The notes beneath the pieces were generated by a model. The model had not been told where the DNA came from. It saw only the letters and a list, made by a program, of their open reading frames with translations, and did no database searches. Source: a virus. Taken from it: 64,000 nt of DNA. Positions 3,658 to 34,094 of the stretch are shown here, one piece after another. Position numbers and translations under genes: made by a program. The number at the start of each line of letters is the position of its first letter. The first letter of the stretch is position 1. The DNA is taken from IMG/VR virus record IMGVR_UViG_3300009370_000002; one strand, given 5' to 3'.

Positions 3658-3659
3658 AG

Positions 3660-3953: not shown

Positions 3954-3979
3954 GTTAGCTCCTTTGCTTGGGTGTCTTT

Positions 3980-5480: not shown

Positions 5481-5506
5481 TGGGATTACTCCTTGGTTGT
5501 GTCTAT

Positions 5507-5550
5507 AATATAGCTCATTGCTCAGAGGTTGGGTAGGACATTAAATGTCC
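5507..5550 (-). promoter_or_regulatory. repeat promoter module 6
   Basis: -10 TATATT at 5507-12, -35 at 5530-35, palindrome 5536-50. Confidence 0.85.
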
Positions 5551-5759: not shown

Positions 5760-5769
5760 AAGTCACCTC

Positions 5770-6822
5770 CTACTTACGGTTCATGAGTTGAACGATGTGC
5801 ATATTAACCTTAGTACCATCCTTAGTGGTTGTACCGTGGAAACCTGCGATGTTCTGTGAACACTTAGCCTTTCCGATATGAGTCCAGATAGTCATTGCAA
5901 TCTCACTTGGTAGAGATACGAAGTACTCTGCAAGGTTAGTTAGCTGATTCTTACTCATAGGCTCGGCAAACAAGTCAACAGCTTTCATCTTCTCGATAAG
6001 AGCAAGGTGGTCGTTGTTAGCGAAGTCCTTGATAAGCTCGAATTTGCCATCGTCGATGATGTCAGTGACATTGACTTGACGTTTGTAGTTCTTAATGAAG
6101 TCATTAAGGGCTACTGAAGCTTCCATACCAACGAAAGCATGGCTAAGGTGATACAGTGTAGTACCAGATTCGATTTTATTCAAGCCACGAAGTGCCTTGT
6201 CAAGGCGAACCCAAGAGCGACGAGAAGGATAAACCTTGTTAGGCTCATACTCATCCTTATGCTCAAGGTGGCTATGATTCTGGTTAATGAAATCCCAAAG
6301 CTCAACAGAGACTTTGCTCTTTGCCCATGATAGCCAGTCTTCGACTGTAGGCTCTACATCGAACACAGTGTAACGATCAAGCTCTGCTGGATCCATTTCA
6401 CCGACTTGATACTGAGCACCGTGATCTCCACCATTAACAGCAGCAAAGATAAGAGTATCTGGATGCAGGACTTGCCCTGCAATCTTACGGCTATCGCATA
6501 GCTCAAAGATACCTTGACGGACTTCCATCGTAGCTCTATCAACTTCATCAAGGAAGAGAAGCACTGGCTTAGTGCAAGCAGTGTGCAACCATTCTGGTGC
6601 AAGCCACTTAGTGACACCTTTCTCGACTTTTGGCAAGCCAAGCAAATCACCCTCTGTCATCTGTGAAGCTCGACGCTCGACAACAGGCAAACCTAAGTCT
6701 TTTGCAGTCTGATATACAAGCTCGGATTTACCGATACCGTGCCTACCACGAATAAGTACAGGGTACTTAGCAAAGATGATGTGAGAGATTACTGAGTTGA
6801 ATGTTTGAAAATCAATAGCCAT
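5770..6822 (-). CDS. MoxR-type AAA+ ATPase
   Basis: Walker A GRHGIGKS, Walker B LFLDE, MDPAELDRY, PSRRSW. Confidence 0.88.
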   Translation of the reverse strand: MAIDFQTFNSVISHIIFAKYPVLIRGRHGIGKSELVYQTAKDLGLPVVERRASQMTEGDLLGLPKVEKGVTKWLAPEWLHTACTKPVLLFLDEVDRATMEVRQGIFELCDSRKIAGQVLHPDTLIFAAVNGGDHGAQYQVGEMDPAELDRYTVFDVEPTVEDWLSWAKSKVSVELWDFINQNHSHLEHKDEYEPNKVYPSRRSWVRLDKALRGLNKIESGTTLYHLSHAFVGMEASVALNDFIKNYKRQVNVTDIIDDGKFELIKDFANNDHLALIEKMKAVDLFAEPMSKNQLTNLAEYFVSLPSEIAMTIWTHIGKAKCSQNIAGFHGTTTKDGTKVNMHIVQLMNRK

Positions 6823-6870
6823 GATAGGACTCCAAGATTGTGGTTAAGGTTTCTGTTTGTTTGTATCTAT

Positions 6871-6914
6871 AATGTAATTAGTTATGTTCTGTTTGGGTAG
6901 GACATTTTCTGTCC
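6871..6914 (-). promoter_or_regulatory. repeat promoter module 7
   Basis: -10 at 6871-76, -35 at 6894-99, palindrome 6900-14. Confidence 0.85.
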
Positions 6915-6919
6915 GTTTT

Positions 6920-7153
6920 TTATATCGCCTCTTTTTCCTCTTCAGAATCTTCATCCCATTCAGAGTCTTCACACTCTACATCGCCCATGACGATTTGTGT
7001 GCCATCTTCCTCCCCATAAAGTTCCGCTGGTTCTAAATCGTTTAGCATATCATATCCCTTTCTCTCTGCTTCATCATAAGACTCGGCTTCGACTTCGATT
7101 CGATAGTGACGCTCTATGTATCCATAAACTATGAAAGTTGTTTTCTTCGGCAT
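6920..7153 (-). CDS. small acidic protein (VEAESYDEA motif)
   Basis: GGAGG RBS downstream of module 8. Confidence 0.65.
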   Translation of the reverse strand: MPKKTTFIVYGYIERHYRIEVEAESYDEAERKGYDMLNDLEPAELYGEEDGTQIVMGDVECEDSEWDEDSEEEKEAI

Positions 7154-7175
7154 GTTGCCTCCTTGGTATGTTTAT

Positions 7176-7219
7176 AATATATGCTGTTTCAGTCTGTTTG
7201 GGTAGGACATTTTTTGTCC
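7176..7219 (-). promoter_or_regulatory. repeat promoter module 8
   Basis: -10 at 7176-81, -35 at 7199-7204, palindrome 7205-19. Confidence 0.85.
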
Positions 7220-7220
7220 G

Positions 7221-7397
7221 TTATGAGATTCTTTTGAAATATTCTGGTTCCATCCATTTTTTCTCTGATCTGAAGTAGCGTCCATCATTAAGGAAAACCA
7301 CCAGATACATAACTCCCTTTCCTTGGAAGTCTTCTATCCTTGTTATGATACCAGTGCGTTGGTAGAAGTTATCCTTTACTAAATCACCTACTTTCAT
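7221..7397 (-). CDS. SH3/KOW-like mini-protein (58 aa, MKVGDLVKDNFYQRTGII...)
   Basis: Manually translated; below the ORF-track cutoff; ATGA coupling. Confidence 0.75.
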   Translation of the reverse strand: MKVGDLVKDNFYQRTGIITRIEDFQGKGVMYLVVFLNDGRYFRSEKKWMEPEYFKRIS

Positions 7398-7570
7398 GAT
7401 ACTACCTCTAAGTTGTCAGGGAAATTCCACGTTACTTCACCGCTCTCAGCCCAATAAATATCGCAGCAATGGGTATCATCTTCAATGTATAGGTTCACCA
7501 CGATGCCGATGCCCTTGGTGAGAAGAAATACCTTATCCTCTCTCATTCTTACTAAGTCACCTATCTTCAT
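7394..7570 (-). CDS. SH3/KOW-like mini-protein (58 aa, MKIGDLVRM...NLEVVS)
   Basis: Manually translated; GAGGT RBS. Confidence 0.75.
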   Translation of the reverse strand: MKIGDLVRMREDKVFLLTKGIGIVVNLYIEDDTHCCDIYWAESGEVTWNFPDNLEVVS

Positions 7571-7769
7571 TGATCACCTCGATTTCATCACCCCACAAGT
7601 CATCGTTTAAGCCATTCGGCCACAGTACCTTGTACAGGGGTTGGCGAGTACCACTGATTTCAATGATTATTCCGTACTCTTCGGGGGAATCATCAAGCTC
7701 AGTGTCTTTCATCCAAGGGTTGACTTGAACCCAGTCACCCTTTAGCTTTACTAAATCACCTACTTGCAT
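7557..7769 (-). CDS. SH3/KOW-like mini-protein (70 aa, MQVGDLVKL...IEVINEDR)
   Basis: Start reassigned to MQVG, which has a GGAGGT RBS. Confidence 0.75.
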   Translation of the reverse strand: MQVGDLVKLKGDWVQVNPWMKDTELDDSPEEYGIIIEISGTRQPLYKVLWPNGLNDDLWGDEIEVINEDR

Positions 7770-7930
7770 GGTGCTACCTCCAGATTGGACATTAAGGAAC
7801 CGACGATTTTGCCAGTGTTCATGAGGGCTATCTTCACGCATCTGATTACGTTAGGCCCTTCCACCACGATGGCAAGCTCACCTCCATCCCTGCAATATCG
7901 CTTAATCCTTACTAAGTCTCCAACTTTCAT
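7760..7930 (-). CDS. SH3/KOW-like mini-protein (56 aa, MKVGDLVRI...NLEVAPCK)
   Basis: Manually translated; first gene after module 9. Confidence 0.75.
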   Translation of the reverse strand: MKVGDLVRIKRYCRDGGELAIVVEGPNVIRCVKIALMNTGKIVGSLMSNLEVAPCK

Positions 7931-7954
7931 GATGCTCTCCTTGGTTATGATAGT

Positions 7955-7998
7955 AATGTATCATACTCAGGGGTAGATGGGTAGGACAGATTATGTCC
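7955..7998 (-). promoter_or_regulatory. repeat promoter module 9
   Basis: -10 at 7955-60, -35 at 7978-83, palindrome 7984-98. Confidence 0.85.
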
Positions 7999-8668
7999 GT
8001 TTTTTCGTTTTGGGTACACGGTGCTTCTTTAGGGACTTCTCTATTACGGTTGTCACCATCGTTCCACCAACTTCCAAAAGCTCATATCGCTTGGTTCCAC
8101 CAAGCTTTTCGTTGTATACATGCGATTTGGTAATAGGCTTATTGCCGATGGTAATCACCATCCAAGAATCAACCTGTCGATGTCGAAAGCCGACATCAGC
8201 ATTAGCTCTGAGGCGAACCAAGTCACCTATAGCAAACTTGGGTTCTGCCTTATGGCTTTCCCATACGTTGTTGGCATACTCGTTGTCCATCATTCGTATG
8301 AAGTCTGAATAATCTGGTAGGTGGGTCTGCTTGCCTTCTATAAAAGCTTTGCAAAGGGTTGCTGTTGTTCGATAGTAGTGGGTATTAAGGTAGTAATCGC
8401 ATATCACTCGTACCTTTTCCCTGTACTCTTCGTCGTTAGCCAGCTTGACTTTCCAGTTGCGGAACCTCTCCATAGCTATGTCACCCAGAGAGTAGTATAT
8501 GGATGCTGCGAAGCTCTTCTGAGCCTGAGTTAGCTCTCTTTCTGTAGTCCTCTGAAATTCTATCATGCTTGTGAGTACCCTTGTATACTTTGGGTTACCC
8601 ATCTCCTCTGCTCTGCCCAGCATCACAGTCATTCTCTCTGGTGAGAAGTCAAAATCTGAAAGTTTCAT
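7991..8668 (-). CDS. hypothetical protein with fused C-terminal SH3/KOW-like domain (KFAIGDLVRL)
   Basis: Sole gene between modules 10 and 9; stop lies inside the palindrome. Confidence 0.75.
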   Translation of the reverse strand: MKLSDFDFSPERMTVMLGRAEEMGNPKYTRVLTSMIEFQRTTERELTQAQKSFAASIYYSLGDIAMERFRNWKVKLANDEEYREKVRVICDYYLNTHYYRTTATLCKAFIEGKQTHLPDYSDFIRMMDNEYANNVWESHKAEPKFAIGDLVRLRANADVGFRHRQVDSWMVITIGNKPITKSHVYNEKLGGTKRYELLEVGGTMVTTVIEKSLKKHRVPKTKKRT

Positions 8669-8693
8669 GATGTTTCTCCTTGGTTATGATAGT

Positions 8694-8737
8694 AATGTAT
8701 CATGCTCAGGGGTAGATGGGTAGGTCATTTTTTGTCC
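8694..8737 (-). promoter_or_regulatory. repeat promoter module 10 (TGACC half-site variant)
   Basis: -10 at 8694-99, -35 at 8717-22, palindrome 8723-37. Confidence 0.85.
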
Positions 8738-8940
8738 GATTTGAATTTTTTCAATTCTCTTCGATGGAATCTTGTGCTGCTTTCTTCTTTGCCATCTGCT
8801 CTGTACCAGTGGCATTGTATGGGATACTTGGAATAGTTTTCCCCTACCCAGACTACAAATCCCCAGCCTCCATAGCAAACATCGTTGTGCTGCCTTGACT
8901 TGCCATAAGCTGACAGTTGTACTAAATCACCTACTTTCAT
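8725..8940 (-). CDS. SH3/KOW-like mini-protein, LSxxGK subfamily
   Basis: MKVGDLVQLSAYGK...ELKKFKSDKK. Confidence 0.78.
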   Translation of the reverse strand: MKVGDLVQLSAYGKSRQHNDVCYGGWGFVVWVGENYSKYPIQCHWYRADGKEESSTRFHRRELKKFKSDKK

Positions 8941-9112
8941 CTTTACTCTCCTTCAAGTTTTCAATAAAGAATTTGCTTATCCATTCCTCTTCGCCCTCGT
9001 CTTTGTGTAGTGGGTCGTAATTCCAAACAACACAAACGCTGGTTCCACTCTCTTCTATAATAATGCCCACCGCCCCTGTTGGCTTGTGGGTTATAAGATC
9101 ACCTACTTGCAT
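8927..9112 (-). CDS. SH3/KOW-like mini-protein (61 aa)
   Basis: MQVGDLITH...GIII...V.W pattern. Confidence 0.78.
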   Translation of the reverse strand: MQVGDLITHKPTGAVGIIIEESGTSVCVVWNYDPLHKDEGEEEWISKFFIENLKESKDESR

Positions 9113-9270
9113 ACTACCTCCAGATACCTTTGGTGTTCCTCAAAGTAAACATGTCGTTCACCATCTATCCACTCGATTTCAACAGCATAGCCATCCTGCT
9201 CGGTATGCACAACTATGCCTGTGTATCCTTCGTCGGCATTGGTATATCTAACTAAGTCACCTACTTGCAT
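9103..9270 (-). CDS. SH3/KOW-like mini-protein (55 aa, MQVGDLVRY...YLEVVCK)
   Basis: Manually translated; first gene after module 11. Confidence 0.75.
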   Translation of the reverse strand: MQVGDLVRYTNADEGYTGIVVHTEQDGYAVEIEWIDGERHVYFEEHQRYLEVVCK

Positions 9271-9294
9271 TGTGTTCTCCTCGGTTATGTTAGT

Positions 9295-9338
9295 AATGTA
9301 TCATGGTGCAGGGGAGTTGGGTAGGACAAATTATGTCC
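9295..9338 (-). promoter_or_regulatory. repeat promoter module 11
   Basis: -10 at 9295-9300, -35 at 9318-23, palindrome 9324-38. Confidence 0.85.
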
Positions 9339-10197
9339 TATTTGCCCAATCCTCAATGTGACGAGATACCCTATCTTCATCCAACTTGTGGATACTGCGC
9401 TTCTTAACTAAGTAATCCCAAGCTTCACCGTATGAAGTCGTCCAGTTATCGGGCAAAGGAGCTTCAGACTTGCCAATGATTTTAGCAAGGTGCATACTGT
9501 TGTATCTACCACCCTTGTGTACGATAACCCTTTGAAGTTTGAAATCTTCTTTAACAAACTGATCAATAGAAATCTGCTGTTCTACTCCGTCAACCAAGGC
9601 ATTGATGGTGAAACGCTGTCCATATTTCTCATTCGTATCCCAGTTGCCGCTGAAGGCAGTGAATACGTTCACCGTATCCCAGTTGATGTGAGTAATCAAG
9701 CCGATATGATGTAGGGTTGTAGCATTTGCGCCCCAACCTTGCCTTTGAGTGACTTCGATGGCAGCACCAATGTCCAGCCCAAGCTCTTTGACAACGTATT
9801 TATGAACAGCCTTGCGATAGTTCTCATTAGCCTTCTTACAAAGCTTCAGAAACTTCTGCATTTCATCGCAGTTTCGACGATTGTGGCTTGGGTCACCGCA
9901 GAACCCACACTTAGGGGCAGAGCGTACCCTCTTGGTACCCTTCTTTGGAAGTGAGCTTTGATAGGCTACCAAATCCCTACACTTAGTGTACCATTCACCC
10001 CAATACTTAGGCTGCTTGAACCAGTGGCTTGAGGCAATACCTGTGGTATCGACTGGGATTTTCCGAACTGATAAGTATACCCAGTCCTCCTTGGCATGAG
10101 GGCAGTCTCTTCTATTGTGTCCAGACTTACGGCAATATCCACATGCTGATGTTCTTCTGCTGGAATATCCTGATTTACTGTTTTCAAAAATCTTCAT
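9331..10197 (-). CDS. double CCHC zinc-knuckle protein (288 aa)
   Basis: CGYCRKSGHNRRDC and CGFCGDPSHNRRNC (CX2CX4HX4C). Confidence 0.8.
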   Translation of the reverse strand: MKIFENSKSGYSSRRTSACGYCRKSGHNRRDCPHAKEDWVYLSVRKIPVDTTGIASSHWFKQPKYWGEWYTKCRDLVAYQSSLPKKGTKRVRSAPKCGFCGDPSHNRRNCDEMQKFLKLCKKANENYRKAVHKYVVKELGLDIGAAIEVTQRQGWGANATTLHHIGLITHINWDTVNVFTAFSGNWDTNEKYGQRFTINALVDGVEQQISIDQFVKEDFKLQRVIVHKGGRYNSMHLAKIIGKSEAPLPDNWTTSYGEAWDYLVKKRSIHKLDEDRVSRHIEDWANRT

Positions 10198-10226
10198 ATT
10201 TGTTCTCCGTTTGAGTTTGTACTTAT

Positions 10227-10270
10227 AATGTATCGGGTTAGGTACGAGTTGGGTAGGTCATTTTTTGTCC
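10227..10270 (-). promoter_or_regulatory. repeat promoter module 12
   Basis: -10 at 10227-32, -35 at 10250-55, palindrome 10256-70. Confidence 0.85.
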
Positions 10271-10485
10271 GGTTTGTATTTCTTCAATTCGTAGCGTTTG
10301 AATCTGCATGGGAAATTCTGAGTCATATCCGCTGACCACCACTCAACCAAGTAAGGGCTAAATCTTCTGCCGTATCTCGATCTTATCTCTTTGATGATGC
10401 CGAAGCCACCCATCACCCGTTGTCGCCAATTGGCACTCATCTTCTTTCCTGCTGCTGATAACTGTATTATATCACCTACTTTCAT
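10258..10485 (-). CDS. SH3/KOW-like mini-protein, LSxxGK subfamily
   Basis: MKVGDIIQLSAAGK...ELKKYKPDKK. Confidence 0.78.
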   Translation of the reverse strand: MKVGDIIQLSAAGKKMSANWRQRVMGGFGIIKEIRSRYGRRFSPYLVEWWSADMTQNFPCRFKRYELKKYKPDKK

Positions 10486-10562
10486 TAGACTTTCTCCTTA
10501 GTGCGCTGTGAATGAGACTTGCATAGATAAAGGTACACATCACCACCATAGTGGCGATGCCC

Positions 10563-10967
10563 TTAACTACCTCTCTTTTTCGCATATTCTTTCGCTTTGG
10601 CTTTTCTTGCTTCATCGATTTCACGCTCCTGTTGTATCATTTTGGATACCCAGCGGTTTCCATATTCGTTTTCATAGTCTGCAACGTACTCATTGTCCAT
10701 AACAAGTATCATCTTGCCTTGGAGGAACTTCTTACGAAGTCTGTACCCTGCTATGAGGAATTGCTCACCCACTGGTACGAGTTGATCATCGCTCATAAGA
10801 ACCTTGCAGATAGCATAAGGCATAGCCTTCCACTTTCGCTTGTACTCACCTGTCTTCTTGTCCAGACGAGGCTTTGTAAGGTACTTGCGAAACGCTACCT
10901 TTTCAACGATAGAGGTTACATTGCCTTGGGCAAAAAATACTGTTTGATCCTTTTTCAAATAAGCCAT
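10563..10967 (-). CDS. basic hypothetical protein (134 aa)
   Basis: AGGAG RBS after module 13. Confidence 0.7.
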   Translation of the reverse strand: MAYLKKDQTVFFAQGNVTSIVEKVAFRKYLTKPRLDKKTGEYKRKWKAMPYAICKVLMSDDQLVPVGEQFLIAGYRLRKKFLQGKMILVMDNEYVADYENEYGNRWVSKMIQQEREIDEARKAKAKEYAKKRGS

Positions 10968-10998
10968 GAGTTATCTCCTTGTCTCTGGTTATGTATAT

Positions 10999-11042
10999 AA
11001 TATATCCGGTTAGGTAGTGCCTGGGTAGGTCATTTTTTGTCC
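10999..11042 (-). promoter_or_regulatory. repeat promoter module 13
   Basis: -10 at 10999-11004, -35 at 11022-27, palindrome 11028-42. Confidence 0.85.
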
Positions 11043-11266
11043 GGTTTTTTGAATCTCTTTAGCTCATAAGCCTTGAAGGGCTGGCGGAAGTTCTCCATGT
11101 CCTCATTCCACCACTCACACTGGATGGGATAGGTTCTGCCATTTCTTTGGGGCTTTCTTCCAACTTTCTTCACAAAGCCAAATCCACCTCTGCACCTCCA
11201 ATTACCACTTCTCTTCTTACCTGCTGATGACAGCATTACCAAGTCTCCTTTCTTAAACTTTTTCAT
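11030..11266 (-). CDS. SH3/KOW-like mini-protein, LSxxGK subfamily (78 aa)
   Basis: MKKFKKGDLVMLSSAGK...ELKRFKKPDKK; start reassigned. Confidence 0.78.
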   Translation of the reverse strand: MKKFKKGDLVMLSSAGKKRSGNWRCRGGFGFVKKVGRKPQRNGRTYPIQCEWWNEDMENFRQPFKAYELKRFKKPDKK

Positions 11267-11418
11267 TGTATCACCTCCAATAGTTTTGTTTGAATCCATT
11301 CCCTTCGCCCATTAATCCAAAGCACGTTACAATAATGTTCATTGTGCTTCCTTATAATCGTGCCAAGAAGTCCATTAGGAGGATATGTTGCCTGCCTTAC
11401 TAAGTCACCTACTTGCAT
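11263..11418 (-). CDS. SH3/KOW-like mini-protein (51 aa)
   Basis: MQVGDLVRQ...LLEVIQ. Confidence 0.75.
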   Translation of the reverse strand: MQVGDLVRQATYPPNGLLGTIIRKHNEHYCNVLWINGRREWIQTKLLEVIQ

Positions 11419-11588
11419 ACTGCCTCCAAGTCTGCGCCCTTTAGATAATAATCTGTCTGATAGATGCGGAAATCGCCATTGTGCCAATGTACCGAAATTT
11501 CTCTGATGTTCTCACGGAGCCGGTATATCTTGGTGACAATCCCAAAATCTTTTCTGTCGGGGTGTGTTACTAAATCGCCAACTTTCAT
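11409..11588 (-). CDS. SH3/KOW-like mini-protein (59 aa, MKVGDLVTH...DLEAVCK)
   Basis: Manually translated; first gene after module 14. Confidence 0.75.
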   Translation of the reverse strand: MKVGDLVTHPDRKDFGIVTKIYRLRENIREISVHWHNGDFRIYQTDYYLKGADLEAVCK

Positions 11589-11613
11589 GGTGTTTCTCCT
11601 TGGTTGTGTCTAT

Positions 11614-11657
11614 AATATAGCACAGTCAGGGGTAGGTGGGTAGGTCATTTTTTGTCC
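11614..11657 (-). promoter_or_regulatory. repeat promoter module 14
   Basis: -10 at 11614-19, -35 at 11637-42, palindrome 11643-57. Confidence 0.85.
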
Positions 11658-11857
11658 GATTGGGAGGCATTGATCCATTCTGTGGATGAGCAATCCGGTT
11701 TCAGATGGGAAGGGTGAAAGACGGCTGTAACGTCCATCGCAGGGAAGTATATCTCAAATCTTCCTCCATGTTGTCCGATTATGATGCCATGTGAATCGTA
11801 TCCAAAGCCTTTCATTCTTATGGTTGGTTCTACCAAGTCTCCAATTTTAAACTTCAT
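11645..11857 (-). CDS. SH3/KOW-like mini-protein (70 aa)
   Basis: MKFKIGDLVE...SDKK; stop inside the palindrome. Confidence 0.75.
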   Translation of the reverse strand: MKFKIGDLVEPTIRMKGFGYDSHGIIIGQHGGRFEIYFPAMDVTAVFHPSHLKPDCSSTEWINASQSDKK

Positions 11858-12014
11858 TGATCACCTTCATGTCACTGCTATGACAATAACGACAACAGCC
11901 ACTGGTAAAAGCTACTAACCAACAAGTTCCGACTGTTGGTTGTGCTCGACTCTCTCTTATTATTATGCCTTTCTCTCTACTATCCCAATCATATATTAAA
12001 TCACCTATTTTCAT
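11847..12014 (-). CDS. SH3/KOW-like mini-protein (55 aa, MKIGDLIYD...MKVINEV)
   Basis: Manually translated. Confidence 0.72.
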   Translation of the reverse strand: MKIGDLIYDWDSREKGIIIRESRAQPTVGTCWLVAFTSGCCRYCHSSDMKVINEV

Positions 12015-12310
12015 TGTATCACCTCAAACCAATCGCCTATGGGGTGCCACAGGACAATATTCTCATTCGCTCGTAACATGTCGTCATTCCTTCTGAAAAG
12101 GCGACTAAAGCTTCCTGACAAACCTTCCCAGTCAGCACCAATTGCACGTTCGATTTTAGGCCCCACTTCGGGAAGCATCACCCACATAAGCTGAACGCAG
12201 TTATGTTCGTGTAAGGGAGATTTCGATCTATTGTCTAATCCGACAACCAAAGCCATAGACTTGTGCTTTTGTCCTGCCACATTGTAACAAACTAAATCAC
12301 CTATTTTCAT
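12011..12310 (-). CDS. SH3/KOW-like protein with insertion (99 aa)
   Basis: MKIGDLVCY...WFEVIQ. Confidence 0.75.
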   Translation of the reverse strand: MKIGDLVCYNVAGQKHKSMALVVGLDNRSKSPLHEHNCVQLMWVMLPEVGPKIERAIGADWEGLSGSFSRLFRRNDDMLRANENIVLWHPIGDWFEVIQ

Positions 12311-12334
12311 TGTGTTCTCCTTAGCTATGTTAGT

Positions 12335-12378
12335 AATGTATCATAGTAGGTAGTGGGTGGGTAGGTCATTTTTTGTCC
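12335..12378 (-). promoter_or_regulatory. repeat promoter module 15
   Basis: -10 at 12335-40, -35 at 12358-63, palindrome 12364-78. Confidence 0.85.
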
Positions 12379-12566
12379 GGCATCCACTCTTTCAAAGATT
12401 CCTCGTCAATCCATCGTTCATGAGCCTCATCGTCAAGCGTCCTGACAACATACACAAAACCTCCAAAGGTATGGTTTATAATCCTCACAACGATGGCTGG
12501 AAATGGACGTTTAAGTTTGCCGCTCCAGCCAATGGCAACCAAGTCACCTACTTCAAATTGCTGCAT
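12366..12566 (-). CDS. SH3/KOW-like mini-protein (66 aa)
   Basis: FEVGDLV...PDKK. Confidence 0.75.
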   Translation of the reverse strand: MQQFEVGDLVAIGWSGKLKRPFPAIVVRIINHTFGGFVYVVRTLDDEAHERWIDEESLKEWMPDKK

Positions 12567-12727
12567 ATTGCCTCCACTGCATCTTGGGTTACCTCTTCTC
12601 TGAAACCGTCAAGCCACTCCACAACAACAGTGTCACCCCAGTAGTCATCATAAGGTGGAACCTCAAGAACAATTCCAAATCGCTCAAGATTGATACCTCT
12701 AACCTTTACCAAATCACCGACTTTCAT
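12548..12727 (-). CDS. SH3/KOW-like mini-protein (59 aa, MKVGDLVKVRG...)
   Basis: Manually translated. Confidence 0.75.
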   Translation of the reverse strand: MKVGDLVKVRGINLERFGIVLEVPPYDDYWGDTVVVEWLDGFREEVTQDAVEAICSNLK

Positions 12728-12899
12728 TGATCACCTCGCACTCTTGTTCTACATAATCCTTCCCGAACCATGCGTCCATTCCATTATCAAAGCAATAAAG
12801 CCTATAAGGGTTTCTCTTTCGTCTGTCACCTATTTCAATAATAACAGCATAGCCATCCTCTGGCCATCTCTTGTCTCGTATTAAGTCACCTACTTTCAT
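12714..12899 (-). CDS. SH3/KOW-like mini-protein (61 aa)
   Basis: MKVGDLIRD...CEVINESR. Confidence 0.75.
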   Translation of the reverse strand: MKVGDLIRDKRWPEDGYAVIIEIGDRRKRNPYRLYCFDNGMDAWFGKDYVEQECEVINESR

Positions 12900-13039
12900 A
12901 CTGCCTCCACATACCATTTCAAGCACCATGAAGACTCCCCATCAGCCCAATAGCAAAATACTTGTGCTCTGCTGTTGTCAATCTCCATGATGATCCCGTG
13001 AGTTCCATCTCTGTAAATAACCAAATCACCTACTTGCAT
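12896..13039 (-). CDS. SH3/KOW-like mini-protein (47 aa)
   Basis: MQVGDLVIY...YVEAV. Confidence 0.72.
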   Translation of the reverse strand: MQVGDLVIYRDGTHGIIMEIDNSRAQVFCYWADGESSWCLKWYVEAV

Positions 13040-13182
13040 TTCAGCCTCCTTAGCCACTCTCTGGGGTATCCGGTTCTCAAATTGCCGCTGCTGGAAAATA
13101 ATATATTGCACCAGCCAGGCCCCATCTCTACAATAAGGACGATATTTCCTCTTACGGTTTCTGCTAAATCACCAACATTCAT
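13030..13182 (-). CDS. SH3/KOW-like mini-protein (50 aa, MNVGDLAET...)
   Basis: Manually translated; first gene after module 16. Confidence 0.72.
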   Translation of the reverse strand: MNVGDLAETVRGNIVLIVEMGPGWCNILFSSSGNLRTGYPREWLRRLKCK

Positions 13183-13206
13183 TGTGTTCTCCTCGGTTAT
13201 GTTAGT

Positions 13207-13250
13207 AATGTATCATGGGGGGCACTACTTGGGTAGGTCAAATTTTGTCC
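13207..13250 (-). promoter_or_regulatory. repeat promoter module 16
   Basis: -10 at 13207-12, -35 at 13230-35, palindrome 13236-50. Confidence 0.85.
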
Positions 13251-14025
13251 ACTTTTGAATTAACTCTTCCAGCATCTCAAAATCTTTGTTTTTCATTGAG
13301 ATATTGTCAAAAAACCATTCCATTGCGCTGTCATCGCCAATGGAGTACCACTCATCGGGGAGAGGGGCAGAGTCTCCATTAAGGCTCAGTACTTCATAAA
13401 ACTGCCACCCTGAGCGATTAGGTATCAAATCCTTTGACCAATCAGCTTTCAATCTGGAAACAATAACTTTGATAGCCTCTCCTTCTACCAATATTTCTAT
13501 CGCTGGAACACCTGAGAACAGCCCACCTTTAGCATACGAACAAAAGACATTTAGCTTGTTTTTATTAAAGCCCGACACTATTCCTACTGATGAACCCTCA
13601 CTGTACGGATAGGCACTCTCAATTAACCCAGAAGGTACACTAACGAGAGAACCAATGCCAAAACCATGTCTATTTGCTTCATTTACAAACTGTCTCCTCC
13701 AATTCTCGTTAGCTTTTTCAACCTTGGCTTTGAATTTTGTCAATTTCCGACACCGATTTCTCTTATGCTTCACAGAATTACAAAAAGAGCACCTTGCTTT
13801 GCGCCTTTTTTGCTTAGGCTTAGAAGCTTTCTTTTGCCTCCGAAGTGTTTCTTGCTTTGCTTTCCTCTCGGAATAAGTTGGAAAATAGTTTCCACCGTAC
13901 TTGGTAACCTGATCACAATACTTTTTGTACACTACATTAACAGCAGGGCAAGAAGTGATATTGTGACCATGAATCCCACAAAGGCCACACTTTACAGTGC
14001 CCTTTCCCCATTCATATCCCTTCAT
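13225..14025 (-). CDS. double CCHC zinc-knuckle protein (266 aa), paralog of 9331..10197
   Basis: CGLCGIHGHNITSC and CSFCNSVKHKRNRC; shared KANENxR..V......(D/G)IG segment. Confidence 0.8.
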   Translation of the reverse strand: MKGYEWGKGTVKCGLCGIHGHNITSCPAVNVVYKKYCDQVTKYGGNYFPTYSERKAKQETLRRQKKASKPKQKRRKARCSFCNSVKHKRNRCRKLTKFKAKVEKANENWRRQFVNEANRHGFGIGSLVSVPSGLIESAYPYSEGSSVGIVSGFNKNKLNVFCSYAKGGLFSGVPAIEILVEGEAIKVIVSRLKADWSKDLIPNRSGWQFYEVLSLNGDSAPLPDEWYSIGDDSAMEWFFDNISMKNKDFEMLEELIQKWTKFDLPK

Positions 14026-14267
14026 TTTATCACCCCTACAGACACAAGCTTGCCATCTGAAATAGTTCCGTACACCCCCTCTATCGGGGTAGGCTCTCCT
14101 CTGTTTTGAGCCTCTACGAGGTTCTTTATGTCTTGTTCTGTCACCTCTGCGCTGAGTGTGGCACTTACGAAATCGTCAGGAGTACCCTCCCAGTATAGTG
14201 CGTTGCCTATCCATGTCTCTCTTATAAAGAGAAGTGCTTCTCTGATTGCTTCTATCTTATTGTTCAT
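14022..14267 (-). CDS. hypothetical protein (81 aa)
   Basis: ATGA-coupled on both sides. Confidence 0.65.
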   Translation of the reverse strand: MNNKIEAIREALLFIRETWIGNALYWEGTPDDFVSATLSAEVTEQDIKNLVEAQNRGEPTPIEGVYGTISDGKLVSVGVIK

Positions 14268-14446
14268 GCTGCCTCCAATTCATCTATTGAATAAACGTAT
14301 TCTTCACCATCATTGCAAAGAACATCATATAAATCGTTGCCGTCAAAGTCCATGATAATGCCATAGTCATCACCAAAGGCGATATATGCCCCCTCGGGGC
14401 CACCCTCTTTATAGTGTCCTAACCTTACTAAGTCTCCTACTTGCAT
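14264..14446 (-). CDS. SH3/KOW-like mini-protein (60 aa)
   Basis: MQVGDLVRL...ELEAA. Confidence 0.75.
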   Translation of the reverse strand: MQVGDLVRLGHYKEGGPEGAYIAFGDDYGIIMDFDGNDLYDVLCNDGEEYVYSIDELEAA

Positions 14447-14613
14447 ACTACCTCCAGTTCCCAAGACTCTGTCCACATGTCGTCGCACATATCGCAGATC
14501 CAGCTAATGAAGTATATGGTTCTCTTTGTGAGAATGTCAGGTGCTACCTCGACTATCACACCCAGAACTTCATGAGGGTCGCCTTTTAGCTTTACTAAAT
14601 CGCTGACTTTCAT
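14437..14613 (-). CDS. SH3/KOW-like mini-protein (58 aa, MKVSDLVKL...ELEVVCK)
   Basis: Manually translated; first gene after module 17. Confidence 0.75.
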   Translation of the reverse strand: MKVSDLVKLKGDPHEVLGVIVEVAPDILTKRTIYFISWICDMCDDMWTESWELEVVCK

Positions 14614-14638
14614 AACGAATCTCCTTGGTTATGTAAGT

Positions 14639-14682
14639 AATGTATCCTATTCTGGCTTAGGTGGGTAGGACATTTTTTGTCC
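14639..14682 (-). promoter_or_regulatory. repeat promoter module 17
   Basis: -10 at 14639-44, -35 at 14662-67, palindrome 14668-82. Confidence 0.85.
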
Positions 14683-15003
14683 TCTTTTGGTTTTTGTCTT
14701 CTTATCCTTCTTTTTGTCACCCTTCTTATGCTCTGGTTTCGTTCGTTTTGGCTTTCGGGGTGGCTTCCTGCGCTTCGGGGGAGGACGCTTCATTCTTGGT
14801 GGAGCCTTCTTGTACCTTGGTGGGCGGTGCTTTATAATCACCCTCTTCTTTTCTCTCTTTATAATCACCTGTCTTATTATCACTGGCTCTGGATTAGGCT
14901 CAATATAGACATTCTGGTAGTCCTCCATAGGTATGGGAGTAGGACTAACAACTTTGATGACGCAACCTGTGCTTATCAGAGCAAGTATCATGATTCTTAT
15001 CAT
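14647..15003 (-). CDS. putative lipoprotein with Pro/Lys/Arg-rich tail
   Basis: MIRIMILALISTGC: signal peptide plus lipobox-like Cys. Confidence 0.6.
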   Translation of the reverse strand: MIRIMILALISTGCVIKVVSPTPIPMEDYQNVYIEPNPEPVIIRQVIIKREKKRVIIKHRPPRYKKAPPRMKRPPPKRRKPPRKPKRTKPEHKKGDKKKDKKTKTKRGQKMSYPPKPE

Positions 15004-15012
15004 TTGTTTCTC

Positions 15013-15186
15013 CTATTTGAAATTCTTTCTGAAATATTCGTATGCCTTTTGTGCTATCTGCTTCGTTTCATATAACATCAATGGTTGTTCTTTACGAACC
15101 TTAATGGCATACAGTCCAACATCACCTCGTTCAAGTTCGGGATATTCGGATAAATGATTTTTTGTTACTTTGAATGGTTTAAGCAT
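15013..15186 (-). CDS. small hypothetical protein (57 aa)
   Basis: GGAG RBS; start reassigned to MLKPF. Confidence 0.55.
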   Translation of the reverse strand: MLKPFKVTKNHLSEYPELERGDVGLYAIKVRKEQPLMLYETKQIAQKAYEYFRKNFK

Positions 15187-15472
15187 CTCCACTCTCCTTT
15201 GCAAGTATTATAGTGTCTATATAGTTTCTTGGAACGAATAATCTTATGACTCTCCACCCCATAAACTTGTCCGGTAGTTGTTTTTTCCATTTGAATTTTG
15301 ATGGATCGGCAGTGTGTTCTGTTTCAACAATGGCACAAAGGTGCGCCCCAGTACCATCGCTTTCAAATCTTGCGTAATACCTATTGTCAGTACACTCAAC
15401 AAGCTCTTTCATGAGAGCCTTAACTGCTTCCTCCTTTGGAGCTTTCGCTCCTGCCCAGTATATATTTGCCAT
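15179..15472 (-). CDS. hypothetical protein (97 aa)
   Basis: Start MANIYW with AAGGA RBS. Confidence 0.55.
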   Translation of the reverse strand: MANIYWAGAKAPKEEAVKALMKELVECTDNRYYARFESDGTGAHLCAIVETEHTADPSKFKWKKQLPDKFMGWRVIRLFVPRNYIDTIILAKESGDA

Positions 15473-15665
15473 GTTTGTATCCTTTGGTTGTGATAGTTGC
15501 AAGTTCATATTTATAATGTATGGTTGGCTGTACCTCTCCAACCCACTGTACGAGTACAAGGCCAGGATTACCTTCCAAGCCAGTTTCTGTAATGATGCCA
15601 TAGGTGTTAGCCCACTGAGGCATGGTTTCTTGGTCAGAGTAGACAACTAAATCTCCTTTTTTCAT
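15420..15665 (-). CDS. SH3/KOW-like mini-protein
   Basis: MKKGDLVVY...YGII...VQW. Confidence 0.72.
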   Translation of the reverse strand: MKKGDLVVYSDQETMPQWANTYGIITETGLEGNPGLVLVQWVGEVQPTIHYKYELATITTKGYKHGKYILGRSESSKGGSS

Positions 15666-15680
15666 TTGTGTTCTTCTCTT

Positions 15681-15724
15681 AATGTATTATGATGAGTACC
15701 ACTTGGGTAGGTCATTTTTTGTCC
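15681..15724 (-). promoter_or_regulatory. repeat promoter module 18
   Basis: -10 at 15681-86, -35 at 15704-09, palindrome 15710-24. Confidence 0.85.
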
Positions 15725-15900
15725 TCTGTTACTCTCAAAAGCATATCAATATCCATTGTATGAATATACCCTGTTTGAATCCATTGTACCGAACAACAAA
15801 AGGTTCCATACATGGGAGCAGAAGGTGTTAATACAATCCCATATCCTATTAAATCTTTATGAACTCTATGAGACACAAGATCGCCTATTTCTAATTCCAC
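15712..15900 (-). CDS. SH3/KOW-like mini-protein (62 aa)
   Basis: LEIGDLVSH...EDKK. Confidence 0.75.
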   Translation of the reverse strand: MELEIGDLVSHRVHKDLIGYGIVLTPSAPMYGTFCCSVQWIQTGYIHTMDIDMLLRVTEDKK

Positions 15901-16168: not shown

Positions 16169-16453
16169 TCAATCATTTATTATCTTTATATCGCCTCGCT
16201 CAACAAGTTTTATGAAAGTGGTTTCAGCTATTACTTGTACATCCCCATCGGTGTAAGATATTTCGTAGTTATTTCTCCACTTAATTGCGGATATTTCTGT
16301 GTCCATAGCCCCGTAGGGTAGTACCTTAGAAATAATCCCCACCTTCCCCATATCACTAATTAAAGTTCCTGCTGTCCATTTGTTTTTGAACCCATTACTT
16401 GCCTCCACACTTAAGCACCTCCCTAAGAAATCCTTTAGTGATAAAGTCGGCAC
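16169..16453 (-). CDS. hypothetical protein (94 aa), weak SH3-like pattern
   Basis: GKVGIISKV...YEISYTDG. Confidence 0.55.
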   Translation of the reverse strand: MPTLSLKDFLGRCLSVEASNGFKNKWTAGTLISDMGKVGIISKVLPYGAMDTEISAIKWRNNYEISYTDGDVQVIAETTFIKLVERGDIKIIND

Positions 16454-17102
16454 TTGCTACATATACCATATCTTCTTGCAAGTTAGGAAATGGGGAAAAT
16501 TGTGATTGATGAAGCATAACTGCCGACACCACCCCCAGTACCCTACCACGACTATCGAACACAACAGAGCCAGAAGACCCAGGCAGAGCAAACGACTGTA
16601 ATAAAATTTCTCCCTCCCGATGTGCAGATACCATGCCTCTAATTAGTACCTTTCCAAGTCCAGACGGATATCCACTGTAAGTTACTACCTCCCCCAGTAG
16701 ATTATCATCAACATTTACCTTCCACCTTTTAGCAGTAATGACGTTTAACTCCCTATCTGGTATAAGGATAGCTATATCTCTATCCTTATCTACAAAAACA
16801 AGAGTAGCTTTAACCTGCTCCTCTCCATCTAATAGCCTTAAGTCATACTCTGATAACGCAACATGTGCTGCTGTTACTATAAACCTATATTTCCCCATCT
16901 TGAAATAATTCCCAGAACCATGCCCAAGAACTTCACCGTCTGCTGTCATAGCAATTTTTAATGATGACTTCTGTGAACTGTCATCGACTGTTACCTCCGC
17001 CTTCAAGTTTACAGAATCTATCTGCAAGTTTAATTTATCCTTGTTGACATCCCCCGATACCAAACACCCCAATAAAAACAATAACATACCTAACCCCCCC
17101 AT
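16395..17102 (-). CDS. trypsin-like serine protease with N-terminal signal
   Basis: TAAHV (His), DIAIL (Asp), PGSSGS (Ser) triad motifs. Confidence 0.88.
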   Translation of the reverse strand: MGGLGMLLFLLGCLVSGDVNKDKLNLQIDSVNLKAEVTVDDSSQKSSLKIAMTADGEVLGHGSGNYFKMGKYRFIVTAAHVALSEYDLRLLDGEEQVKATLVFVDKDRDIAILIPDRELNVITAKRWKVNVDDNLLGEVVTYSGYPSGLGKVLIRGMVSAHREGEILLQSFALPGSSGSVVFDSRGRVLGVVSAVMLHQSQFSPFPNLQEDMVYVASADFITKGFLREVLKCGGK

Positions 17103-31571: not shown

Positions 31572-32235
31572 ATTTTTTAAGCCTTAGCTGTCCATCTTTT
31601 ATTATAACATAGGTACTATGCTCTACCCAGTCGCCACAATTGACATATGTTTTAAGATTCTCACTATCATCTAACCATATCACAACCTCAGGAACATGAG
31701 TATGGCCCATTATGAACACATCTGCTTCCTCATTCCACTTGAGTATATCCCATATCCTTTTAAGCTTCCTCTTCCTAAACTTCCAGTTGACATACCACGT
31801 TGCAAGGTTCCATCCAAATGCTCGTTCTGCCCAATCCTGAAGGACGGACAGAATCTTCATGAAAACTCTCCAAGTCACAACCCCTGTTTCAAACTGGTGT
31901 CCATGAACAATTTTGTACTTCCTGTTTGCATATTCAAATTCATACTTATGAACAAACTTGACACCCGCTATTGTCTTGCCGGCAAACTTACTTAGGCCAA
32001 TATCGTGGTTACCAATAACATATATAACCTTCTTTCCAAGTTTGTTTATTTTGTCGAAAATTGCCGCTGTTGTTTCTGTAAATGTTGGAACTCTTATGAA
32101 GTCTATTATGTCTCCTGCTAATATAAGCTCATCGAATTCAATACTGGAAATAAACTCTAAGAGGCTGGTTTCTTTGGAATTCAAACTTCCAAGATGCAAA
32201 TCAGATATAACCAATCTCACGTAATCACTATTCAT
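31555..32235 (-). CDS. calcineurin-like metallophosphoesterase (LpxH-like)
   Basis: SDLH, GDIID, GNHD, HGH, GHTH motifs. Confidence 0.9.
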   Translation of the reverse strand: MNSDYVRLVISDLHLGSLNSKETSLLEFISSIEFDELILAGDIIDFIRVPTFTETTAAIFDKINKLGKKVIYVIGNHDIGLSKFAGKTIAGVKFVHKYEFEYANRKYKIVHGHQFETGVVTWRVFMKILSVLQDWAERAFGWNLATWYVNWKFRKRKLKRIWDILKWNEEADVFIMGHTHVPEVVIWLDDSENLKTYVNCGDWVEHSTYVIIKDGQLRLKKFDKQD

Positions 32236-32504
32236 ACAAAATCCATAGTCTCTACGTCAAAATTATCAAGCAGTAAATCCGGAACCACCTCAACTGTCCC
32301 GTCATATACCCAATATACCTTTACGTCATATATTACCATTTCTTTGTTTTTGTGCTCAAAGGCGATGTCCTTTATCTCTATAATTTCAAGCACTATGCCC
32401 ACCTGATTTTCTATTGAAATCCATGCTCCATCTCCGTCATACCACGATCTATACTTTACCAATTGCCCTATTTCAAATTCACAAACACATTGCACATGAG
32501 GCAC
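32232..32504 (-). CDS. SH3/KOW-like protein
   Basis: FEIGQLVKY...VGIVLEI...VYW. Confidence 0.6.
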   Translation of the reverse strand: MPHVQCVCEFEIGQLVKYRSWYDGDGAWISIENQVGIVLEIIEIKDIAFEHKNKEMVIYDVKVYWVYDGTVEVVPDLLLDNFDVETMDFV

Positions 32505-32556
32505 CCCCCAATTTAAATAGGCGACATTCTCGCATATTTTTCAATGCCCACAACTA

Positions 32557-32908: not shown

Positions 32909-33118
32909 CTATGCGTAGAGAGCTATTTCGTCCTCAAAAACATACAATTCATTGCCATTTATTACAATTTTGTAATCAAAATTTGTGAAAAAATGTTCCT
33001 CGGCTACCAATTCGTTCTCCACTATTATACCAACATCGCCTTTCTCGATTCGAGTACCGTCAATCAACTCTACCCCCACCAGCGATATCACCAATGTCCC
33101 CACTTCCATCTTCATCAT
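32909..33118 (-). CDS. SH3/KOW-like mini-protein
   Basis: MEVGTLV...GDVGIIV...VFEDEI. Confidence 0.55.
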   Translation of the reverse strand: MMKMEVGTLVISLVGVELIDGTRIEKGDVGIIVENELVAEEHFFTNFDYKIVINGNELYVFEDEIALYA

Positions 33119-34094
33119 TGAATCCGCACACCTCTAATCCATTGTGTCTTGCAATTTTAATTAGAACGCCTTCATCGTAAATGTGTGTAGCTTCAAGAAG
33201 AAATTTCAGTTCTGTTCTCATATCTCCGGTTGAGTATGGCTTATAGACATCGTGAATATTATCTGACCCAAGAGCTACCACCAAATCGTGTTCAAGCATT
33301 TCATCAACAGGGGTTACGGCATTATGTGTCGGAGTCAACTCCTCAGTCCTACGAGCATCTATCCACGCAGTTGGGCATGCCACAAAAGACAGCCCGGCAT
33401 CTTTCGCCATCTTGTAAACCTCTTTGCGATACCACTTAGGGTGACAAGCAAGGCTTATAGAGTGGATTGCTGTAACTCTGCCCTCCATCCCAGCGCTTAT
33501 TGTTTTTCTTGCTAACATTTCGGTTTCTTTCTCGGTTGCTGTGTTTAGTTGATCAACATGAACATGAACTCTCTTACTGTAGGCACTTCCCATAAGTAAC
33601 ATATACTCCATATGTTTCTCTTCATACCCCTTATCTGCGCCTGGTAATGAGCCAATGATATCAAACAAATCCTGTTCCATACTATCTGCTAGCATAACCT
33701 GACATTCGTAAGGGACAACCCCCTTTAATGTTTGGCATGCAATTTTGAAATTTATCCCAACAGACTTAGCATATTGTTTAGCTCGATGTGCTGCGTTGAC
33801 TGCCTTGTATCCCACGACTGGATCAATATCAATAAACGACATACAGTGGGTTGTAAGCTTGCTTTTTTGCTGAAGGAGTGCATTTCGGATGTTTTTGTAA
33901 AAATCATCTTCGGTGGCGTTTGCTTTATAATCATCAACGTACTTCCATTTTTGATGAAGGTGGTTGTATACCACATCTCTCATATTCATTGAAGTTACAG
34001 TGTACGCCCTATCGAAATGAGCATGAGCATTAACAAAACCGCCTGCTTGCCATATAGCATTGTTTAGGTTCTCTAGCGGATTATAATGTGTCAT
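33060..34094 (-). CDS. cytosine-deaminase-like amidohydrolase
   Basis: HAH, HVD, AIH, GSDN metal ligands in CodA order. Confidence 0.85.
   Translation of the reverse strand: MTHYNPLENLNNAIWQAGGFVNAHAHFDRAYTVTSMNMRDVVYNHLHQKWKYVDDYKANATEDDFYKNIRNALLQQKSKLTTHCMSFIDIDPVVGYKAVNAAHRAKQYAKSVGINFKIACQTLKGVVPYECQVMLADSMEQDLFDIIGSLPGADKGYEEKHMEYMLLMGSAYSKRVHVHVDQLNTATEKETEMLARKTISAGMEGRVTAIHSISLACHPKWYRKEVYKMAKDAGLSFVACPTAWIDARRTEELTPTHNAVTPVDEMLEHDLVVALGSDNIHDVYKPYSTGDMRTELKFLLEATHIYDEGVLIKIARHNGLEVCGFNDEDGSGDIGDIAGGGRVD

Follow-up and report, generated by a model that had tools for sequence, protein, structure and literature searches.

This study deals with a 64,000-nucleotide (nt) stretch of viral DNA (IMG/VR record IMGVR_UViG_3300009370_000002), which as a whole we call the window, and with an array of small related genes that it carries between positions 7221 and 15,900. 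Twenty-three small open reading frames (ORFs), all on the minus strand, make up this array and encode proteins of 47 to 99 amino acids (aa) (Table 1). Their starts were set at the M of an M-x-V-G-D motif, which gives 22 ATG codons and one GTG, and each of the 23 is preceded, 6–10 nt upstream, by a Shine–Dalgarno (SD) site reading GGAGG, AAGGAG, or GAGGTG. The motif G-D-(L/I)-(V/I) occupies residues 4–7, or residues 6–9 in four members. When the window was scanned for G/S-D-[LIV]-[VIA], 39 sites were found on the minus strand against 7 on the plus strand, and the N-terminal ones cluster at 7.2–15.9 kb. An earlier note on this DNA had described 23 "M(K/Q)VGDLV" mini-ORFs, and all of them are present with start, SD site, and N-terminal motif. 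It had also reported that nine were absent from the ORF track and that others had wrong starts there, which fits the nine members shorter than 60 aa and the six ORFs with an in-frame start upstream of the SD-preceded ATG.

The 23 members were aligned, and a profile was built on this alignment (A1 hereafter designates both). They follow the pattern MxVGDLV ... GI(I/V)(I/V) ... VxW ... G ... LEV, with 17–40% pairwise identity. Since scoring sequences against a profile made from those same sequences is circular, we used leave-one-out profiles, which detected 21 of the 23 members (E 1e-13 to 1e-3), a recovery in line with the single family proposed earlier. The two that were missed, 12366–12566 and 13030–13182, are called probable members because their orthologues are conserved with the same layout. 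On the opposite strand, the A1 profile found no match at E ≤ 0.01 in 80 related loci and the window, and in a search of the window only, the best opposite-strand match had an E value of 3.9. We rejected the possibility that these ORFs are untranslated, on the basis of the SD-preceded starts, of the absence of any significant opposite-strand profile match, and of the ratio of nonsynonymous to synonymous substitution rates (dN/dS) in orthologous pairs.

All large ORFs of the window are likewise on the minus strand. Among the proteins encoded in the window are a DnaE-type polymerase, GroEL, a class II ribonucleotide reductase, a DnaB-like helicase, RecA, a tail sheath, and a MoxR-type AAA ATPase with a VWA/metallopeptidase partner; no tRNA gene was found in it. 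Neither megablast of two 9–10 kb stretches nor tblastn of two family members and a 1,676-aa protein gave a match among cultured phages, and the window polymerase is at most 32% identical to that of any cultured phage. Cluster records put window proteins on a 195,150-bp contig, and marine samples, those of Tara among them, contain relatives of the family. In IMG/VR, 230 relatives of the flanking MoxR gene were found, many of them on 183–205 kb contigs, one of which has terminal repeats. Related loci were collected by means of this gene, A1 having no stretch conserved enough. With no close cultured phage and with marine relatives in IMG/VR, we conclude that the window derives from large marine tailed phages that form a widespread, uncultured group. 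Family copies are found in 76 of 80 related IMG/VR loci, with 1–25 copies each, always on the coding strand, and the five relatives that are 92–100% complete by CheckV hold 12–25 profile matches each, so that the multi-copy character noted for the window extends to its relatives. Complete relatives also have a second, smaller family cluster far from the main array (~65.7–66.3 kb in G001); in G004, family genes away from the main array lie at ~65.1–65.5 and 81.0–81.7 kb.

The related loci yielded 726 copies, which were aligned to the family profile. Strand 1 is strongly conserved (G 0.99, D 0.96, L 0.93, V 0.89), as is, to a lesser degree, the G before strand 2 (0.88); the V and W of the V-x-W of strand 3 are each conserved at 0.65, the turn G at 0.56, and the L-E of strand 5 at 0.56 and 0.52. 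The loop columns carry less than 0.5 bit, and insertions of up to 16–37 aa are tolerated. Net charge spans −13 to +15 among the window members, and the isoelectric point (pI) is bimodal across the clade, about one-third of the 726 copies lying above 8 and about 40% being acidic (pI 4–6). "One scaffold, variable surface" describes the family fairly.

The 55-aa member 9103–9270, folded with A1, gave a predicted model with five strands and a predicted local distance difference test score (pLDDT) of 93. Foldseek matched it in the PDB to the PHF1/PHF19 Tudor, the Spt5 KOW, and a designed SH3 domain, with template modeling (TM) scores of 0.70–0.76. VIA-align, which covered 48,161 chains, aligned 47–55 residues at 1.4–2.8 Å, with Z values of 8.0–6.0 for myosin and RecD2 SH3, Spt5/NusG KOW, and UvrD/PcrA Tudor domains, CarD, NdhS, and PsaE (8.0–6.7 for those from myosin to CarD); these values lie in a range that the tool calls common and therefore show fold class only. 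The BFVD matches are runs of unnamed viral proteins of 50–70 aa with neighboring accession numbers. Searched against PDB sequences, the A1 profile matched the NusG KOW (E 0.003 for the whole sequence, 0.64 for the domain) and uL24 (E 0.09), and a remote kinship of the family with the KOW motif is possible. None of the 23 members reached a Pfam gathering cut-off, the weak matches being to DsrB, DUF2187, KOW, and MSSS. The KOW cut-off (PF00467, 22.3 bits) was missed by the two weakly matching members (best 12.6 bits, E 0.13), and the DsrB cut-off (PF10781, 25 bits) by the sole match, 7221–7397, at 21.8 bits; a DsrB cluster appears, at 0.90, in an Atlas feature search. DUF1918 (PF08940, cut-off 24 bits) is the closest named sequence family, through the A1 match to Rv2302 (2a7y, E 0.024), but was matched by none of the 23 members at E ≤ 1. 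The PHROGs search gave marginal matches only (phrog_9237 and phrog_11307). Since the fold matches but the cut-offs are missed, a small five-strand barrel of the SH3/Tudor/KOW class is supported by the predicted model, and membership of KOW, DUF1918, or DsrB is not. The SH3/KOW-like fold claimed from the letters alone is thus borne out by the Tudor, KOW, and SH3 chains that the model matches.

Successive genes of the array are linked by stop/start joints of three main forms. At CTGGAGGTAGTATGCAAGTAGG, the upstream frame reads L-E-V-V-C-K-stop and the downstream one an SD site followed by M-Q-V-G, with a 10-nt overlap; at GAGGTGATCAATGAAAGTCGGTGA, the upstream frame reads E-V-I-N-E-S-R-stop and the downstream one an SD site and M-K-V-G-D, with a 14-nt overlap; at GAGGTGATACAATGA, E-V-I-Q-stop overlaps the downstream start, also preceded by its SD site, by 4 nt. 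Of 650 pairs of successive family genes in the clade, 267 overlap, predominantly in the classes −14 (172), −4 (45), and −10 (35), and the commonest family C-termini are SESR and NESR. The SD site of the next gene (GGAGGT/GAGGTG) is translated as the L-E-V of the last strand of the preceding protein, and L-E-V-V is the last strand in the model of 9103–9270. Hence, a single DNA segment specifies a strand of one protein, a ribosome-binding site, and the beginning of the protein that follows. The C-terminal (L/I)E(V/A) motif pointed out earlier is present, but its LEV, EVINESR, and EVVCK forms are largely imposed by the SD, ATG, and MxVGD codons of the following gene. The DKK ends of the last genes of operons, for their part, lie within the next promoter module (GAC AAA AAA TGA CC TACCCA). 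From the anatomy of the joint, we infer that overlapping genes are translationally coupled.

Non-family genes also use the joint: ORF 10472–10624, which ends in NESR, overlaps the family gene 10258–10485 by the same 14-nt joint that is used between family genes, and the gene calls of a strain contig include its counterpart, at 47 aa (L087 3903–4046). A DUF7417 match (58 bits; L081 382–558, inside a related array) was considered and set aside as a helical gene unrelated to the barrel family; its insertion in a related array implies that joints carry non-family cassettes too.

The second repeated element is a module made of a cGGACA-N5-TG(T/A)CC stem-loop, TACCCA, a spacing of ~17 nt, and (TG)aTACATT. 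About 15 copies are found in the window, at ~2.9–15.7 kb (2866–15724), all on the minus (gene) strand and none on the plus strand. Eleven of them lie within the array region and divide the array into operons that each begin at a module; family genes are present in eight of them. The nearest relative (L001) has the same TACCCA module in 15 copies. More distant relatives show, in the same place, an A/T-rich hairpin, CTTGACA, 16–17 nt, and TACATTA or TATATTA, and in L006 the module position reads TGTCC-TCGACA. Because it is homologous to the CTTGACA sites that its relatives have at the same place, we read the module as an early sigma-70-type promoter-like site; the shared promoters of the earlier note would then be these promoter-like modules repeated upstream of the genes. 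The occurrence of TACCCA in place of TTGACA/TCGACA, shared by the nearest relative only, points to a lineage-specific change in promoter recognition. In the antisense direction (plus strand), the module hairpin is followed by a T-run and looks terminator-like at 6894–6915, 7984–7998, 11021–11044, and 14667–14683; such a hairpin with its T-run may stop antisense, not sense, transcription.

Table 1. Family members, promoter-like modules, operons, and associated genes in the window.
Feature	Coordinates	Strand	Remarks
Family member, 62 aa, GTG start, TEDKK end inside next promoter module	15712..15900	-	leave-one-out E 9e-8
Family member, 81 aa, first of its operon	15420..15665	-	leave-one-out E 1e-5
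Family member, 58 aa, LEVVCK end, 10-nt overlap with next gene	14437..14613	-	dN/dS 0.20 vs L087
Family member, 60 aa, net charge −13	14264..14446	-	leave-one-out
Probable family member, 50 aa, shares N-terminal motif	13030..13182	-	missed by leave-one-out; orthologues in 6 loci; dN/dS 0.20
Family member, 47 aa	12896..13039	-	leave-one-out E 5e-12; dN/dS 0.16
Family member, 61 aa, EVINESR end, 14-nt overlap with next gene	12714..12899	-	leave-one-out E 1.5e-13; cluster in 9 loci
Family member, 59 aa	12548..12727	-	leave-one-out; dN/dS 0.09
Probable family member, 66 aa, DKK end	12366..12566	-	missed by leave-one-out; dN/dS 0.22
Family member, 99 aa, 40-aa insertion between strands 3 and 4	12011..12310	-	leave-one-out E 1e-5
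Family member, 55 aa	11847..12014	-	leave-one-out E 1.5e-5
Family member, 70 aa, DKK end	11645..11857	-	weakest leave-one-out recovery, E 1e-3
Family member, 59 aa	11409..11588	-	leave-one-out
Family member, 51 aa	11263..11418	-	leave-one-out; dN/dS 0.08
Basic DKK-type member, 78 aa, net charge +15	11030..11266	-	leave-one-out
Basic DKK-type member, 75 aa, net charge +11.5	10258..10485	-	leave-one-out
Family member, 55 aa, the one folded	9103..9270	-	pLDDT 93, five strands; dN/dS 0.08–0.51
Family member, 61 aa	8927..9112	-	89% identical in L001; dN/dS 0.18
Basic DKK-type member, 71 aa	8725..8940	-	leave-one-out E 2e-12
Family member, 56 aa	7760..7930	-	leave-one-out
Family member, 70 aa, net charge −10.5, long strand 1–2 loop	7557..7769	-	leave-one-out
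Family member, 58 aa	7394..7570	-	leave-one-out
Family member, 58 aa, last of its operon	7221..7397	-	leave-one-out; weak DsrB match
Stem-loop + promoter-like module	15671..15724	-	repeat family D1
Stem-loop + promoter-like module	14629..14682	-	
Stem-loop + promoter-like module	13197..13250	-	
Stem-loop + promoter-like module	12325..12378	-	
Stem-loop + promoter-like module	11604..11657	-	
Stem-loop + promoter-like module	10989..11042	-	
Stem-loop + promoter-like module	10217..10270	-	
Stem-loop + promoter-like module	9285..9338	-	
Stem-loop + promoter-like module	8684..8737	-	
Stem-loop + promoter-like module	7945..7998	-	
Stem-loop + promoter-like module	7166..7219	-	
Operon 1 (transcription order)	family start 15665	-	
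Operon 2	family starts 14613, 14446	-	
Operon 3	family starts 13182, 13039, 12899, 12727, 12566	-	
Operon 4	family starts 12310, 12014, 11857	-	
Operon 5	family starts 11588, 11418, 11266	-	
Operon 6	family start 10485	-	behind 134-aa gene
Operon 7	family starts 9270, 9112, 8940	-	
Operon 8	family starts 7930, 7769, 7570, 7397	-	
Small Lys/Arg-rich membrane-like ORF, hydrophobic segment	10472..10624	-	ends ...NESR
Protein of 225 aa, helical residues 1–140 + C-terminal barrel 150–215 from GDLV	7991..8668	-	predicted model pLDDT 88
Dispersed family member	32232..32540	-	E 2e-6, passes 726-member profile
Dispersed probable family member	32909..33133	-	E 4e-4, passes 726-member profile

The diversity of the family is considerable. 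Clustering of the 726 copies at 50% identity gave 474 clusters, 333 of them with a single copy, and a search of 1.84 billion representatives returned 2,050 clusters at E ≤ 0.001. Within the window, 5 of the 23 members have a paralogue detectable by BLAST (top identity 52%). Only 9 of the 23 have a BLAST-detectable counterpart (38–89% identity) in the nearest relative, with its 79% identical MoxR; the larger genes embedded in the array, by contrast, are kept in 20–58 loci. On short strain-level contigs, blocks of 90–91% nucleotide identity adjoin blocks of 71–74%. A 288-aa gene of the window is swapped, between a promoter module and a joint, for a 50-aa family gene in a strain variant, and the gene order is altered in L082. 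Strain variants thus differ by the replacement, loss, and reordering of whole genes close to modules and joints; in L087, L088, and L082, the edges of BLAST blocks and one replaced gene lie at these elements (few short contigs). The only DNA repeats found in the region are the joint (~31–42 nt) and the promoter module (~54–96 nt).

The dN/dS values range from 0.08 to 0.51 in 11 orthologous pairs of family members, which therefore are real genes under purifying selection. Pooled over 147 pairs, with the dual-coded ends left out, the core has a dN/dS of 0.15 and the loops one of 0.21, so that the loops, whose dN/dS the earlier note had singled out as informative, are under purifying selection as well. 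Of its claim of one scaffold with hypervariable loops, the fixed core and variable loops stand, and ongoing hypermutation does not. The diversity stems from old divergence combined with whole-gene gain, loss, and exchange, not from hypermutation; once a variant exists it is conserved, and the genes are functional.

What could such an array do? The anatomy as described above we hold with high confidence. On the whole, we give slightly better than even chances to a plastic early accessory array of shuffled barrel genes, whose products would be putative host-takeover or counter-defense binders. The region would be a plastic accessory part of an uncultured marine tailed phage of ~195 kb, its early timing being suggested by the promoter-like modules. 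Its genes would be transcribed early by the host RNA polymerase from the module promoters, with the overlapping joints coupling the translation of successive genes within each operon, and joints and modules would serve as homologous-recombination sites for cassette exchange. The barrels would be small binding modules directed against different macromolecules of the host or of competitors. We propose a binder function because the modules, the strong ribosome-binding sites, the purifying selection, the strain turnover, and the wide charge range all fit it; taken by itself, the class of small accessory binders for host takeover or counter-defense falls just short of an even chance. The basic DKK-type subfamily (8725, 10258, 11030) probably binds nucleic acid; it is the most conserved of the window members among relatives, 11030–11266 having counterparts of 35–42% identity in 6 of 8 tabulated loci.

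An extension of this favored reading, possible but doubtful, is a binder library that exists at the level of the population and is shuffled by recombination, joint and module being the sites at which co-infecting phages exchange single barrel genes. If so, each strain would draw its ~20–35 specific inhibitors or modulators from a pool of thousands, to suit the defenses and physiology of the local hosts, which would make the array a phage equivalent of variable gene families built from cassettes.

Several points weigh against the host-takeover reading. The −35 position of the module reads TACCCA, not TTGACA, and the modules escape a generic sigma-70 scan. On the gene strand, no U-run follows the stem-loop, which makes a terminator role doubtful. 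The breakpoints come from BLAST blocks on a few short strain contigs and are coarser than base resolution. Synonymous divergence is near saturation in many pairs, and the choice of pairs with at least 60% identity biases dN/dS downward. Moreover, purifying selection comes without the sign of an ongoing arms race that counter-defense might predict. Finally, the phage GroEL is 44–48% identical to those of very diverse bacteria and tells nothing about the host.

The alternative that survives best, although we consider it unlikely, is that the proteins act above all by binding nucleic acids to modulate gene expression, through RNA stability, transcription–translation coupling, or DNA compaction, as KOW, LSm-like, and Sso7d-type small barrels do, and not by binding host proteins. 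The remote profile similarity to NusG and uL24 KOW domains speaks for it, as do structural neighbors such as NusG/Spt5 KOW domains and a PWWP domain solved with single-stranded DNA. Three window members carry charges of +6 to +15 and K/R-rich tails, and they belong to the most widely conserved subfamily; the share of copies with a pI above 8 and the two zinc-knuckle proteins embedded in the array go in the same direction. On the other hand, about 40% of the copies are acidic, some of them strongly, which fits nucleic-acid binding poorly; conservation outside the core extends to no basic or aromatic surface position; and the T4 proteins GoF and MotB.1 have no sequence similarity to the family profile.

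We find it improbable that the mini-genes are largely selfish or near-neutral passengers, copied and moved by joints and modules with little benefit to the phage. The many singleton clusters, the 14 of 23 members lacking a counterpart in the nearest relative, the repeats that flank every gene, and the differences in gene order and content between strains would all suit such passengers, but every orthologous pair, loops included, has a dN/dS clearly below 1, the array is kept at 12–25 profile matches in each of the five near-complete relatives, ribosome-binding sites are strong, and the encoded domain gives a confident fold prediction. No greater probability attaches to an array that serves competition between phages (superinfection exclusion, interference with co-infecting relatives) and not host takeover. 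Its location suggests early expression, its content is strain-variable, and the membrane-like ORF 10472–10624 is coupled to a family member; yet none of the family members carries a signal peptide or membrane segment, and Pfam and PHROGs gave no match to a known exclusion protein. As for targeted hypermutation of a fixed scaffold by a system of the diversity-generating-retroelement type, we rejected it as extremely improbable: the conserved scaffold with its very variable loops gives it a surface resemblance, but there is no template/variable repeat pair, joint and module being the only repeats, the loops are under purifying selection, and no reverse transcriptase was seen among the window proteins scanned, in a search of the window that was not exhaustive.

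The favored reading of a shuffled early accessory array has its closest known parallel in the PeSL (promoter-early stem-loop) cassettes of the hyperplastic regions of T4-type phages, which carry small orphan genes (PMC2839356; PMC4122927). In both cases, a stem-loop stands directly before an early sigma-70-type promoter, putative in the window, in many same-strand copies and in a plastic region of small genes, and the consensus of the element depends on the lineage. In T4-type phages, the element coincides with insertions, deletions, and replacements between close relatives; the module may do so too, judging by BLAST block edges on a few short strain contigs. The window modules have the stem-loop, the −35/−10 pair, the ~17-nt spacing, and the repetition on the gene strand that characterize PeSL-type elements structurally. 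Real and well-defined features nevertheless set the array apart from the cassettes that it resembles: one fold fills nearly all cassettes here, in contrast to the unrelated orphan genes of PeSL regions; the units are also marked, inside operons, by a second repeat, the dual-coding stop/start joint; and copy number and phage group differ, with a DnaE-type polymerase and no close cultured relative here. In addition, the −35 position of the window module reads TACCCA.

Another parallel is offered by the early T4 proteins GoF, MotB.1, and Frd.2, assigned to an "LSm-like fold" family for which a role in RNA metabolism was proposed (PMC12152347). They too are small early phage proteins predicted to form a small beta-barrel, but there are three of them, of 119–141 aa with extra C-terminal parts, against 23 or more single-domain copies here; GoF and MotB.1, compared by sequence only, scored ~0–1.5 bits against both family profiles. 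Among cellular proteins, the KOW domains of NusG/Spt5 and uL24, CarD, and the Tudor domain of UvrD/PcrA share the five-strand barrel and the G-D-x-V ... G-x-V start. PDB entry titles show such KOW/Tudor-like domains bound to partners, for example the RNA polymerase lobe or UvrB. The phage proteins differ in that they stand alone, their surfaces are not conserved, and the KOW cut-off is not reached. The host-takeover module of phage SPO1 also comprises many small early genes in short operons with strong early promoters and ribosome-binding sites. Its genes are not known to be related to one another, to have standard overlap joints, or to be shuffled. In the literature, we found no description of an SH3-like phage paralogue family, of such arrays, or of this phage group.

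If the role that we favor is right, widespread large marine phages devote ~5% of their genome to thousands of variants of one small scaffold, in a genome layout seemingly built for swapping barrel genes. The family would then be a natural library of compact binders, with many candidate inhibitors of bacterial machinery or defense systems, and a tractable system in which to study how phages assemble and trade their accessory gene sets. The dual-coding joint is a clear case of a protein motif, the L-E-V of the last strand, shaped by the ribosome-binding site of the next gene, and conserved C-terminal motifs in other overlapping phage genes may be shaped in this way.

Further copies were tested with a profile of the 726 clade members. 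Of five dispersed sites proposed in the earlier note, those at 32232 and 32909 hold, and the three others do not (18486, E 0.046; 37186, E 0.45; 1439, no match). The fusion of the domain in 7991–8668, also proposed there, stands as to the fold and not as to the sequence: its C-terminal barrel has five strands in the model and matches HspQ, YorP, Tudor, and PWWP chains, but the family profile gives a non-significant E of 0.13; homologues are found in 46 loci. Proteins from other sources (P0140, P0142, P0141, and P0196) carry 3–10 tandem copies of a related barrel in one polypeptide, and many repeats of P0140 and P0141 keep the M-K-F/Y-K-V-G-D start, as in a fused array. P0140 and P0196 reach the DUF1918 cut-off (59 and 31 bits), and P0141 falls just short of it at 20.3 bits.

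Other genes lie between or beside the family members, all on the minus strand. Two zinc-knuckle paralogues (9331–10197 and 13225–14025; 24% identity, E 7e-15) each have two C-x2-C-x4-H-x4-C motifs and are conserved in 39–58 related loci; their Pfam match to zf-CCHC_2 is weak (16.4 bits). A 134-aa protein without known family (10563–10967) shows 100% amino acid identity to a strain variant at a dS of 0.15, and is under far stronger constraint than its neighbors. A 118-aa ORF (14647–15003) with a hydrophobic N-terminus and a long Pro/Lys/Arg-rich tail has no family match. Just upstream of the array, 16395–17102 encodes a trypsin-like serine peptidase with a hydrophobic N-terminus.

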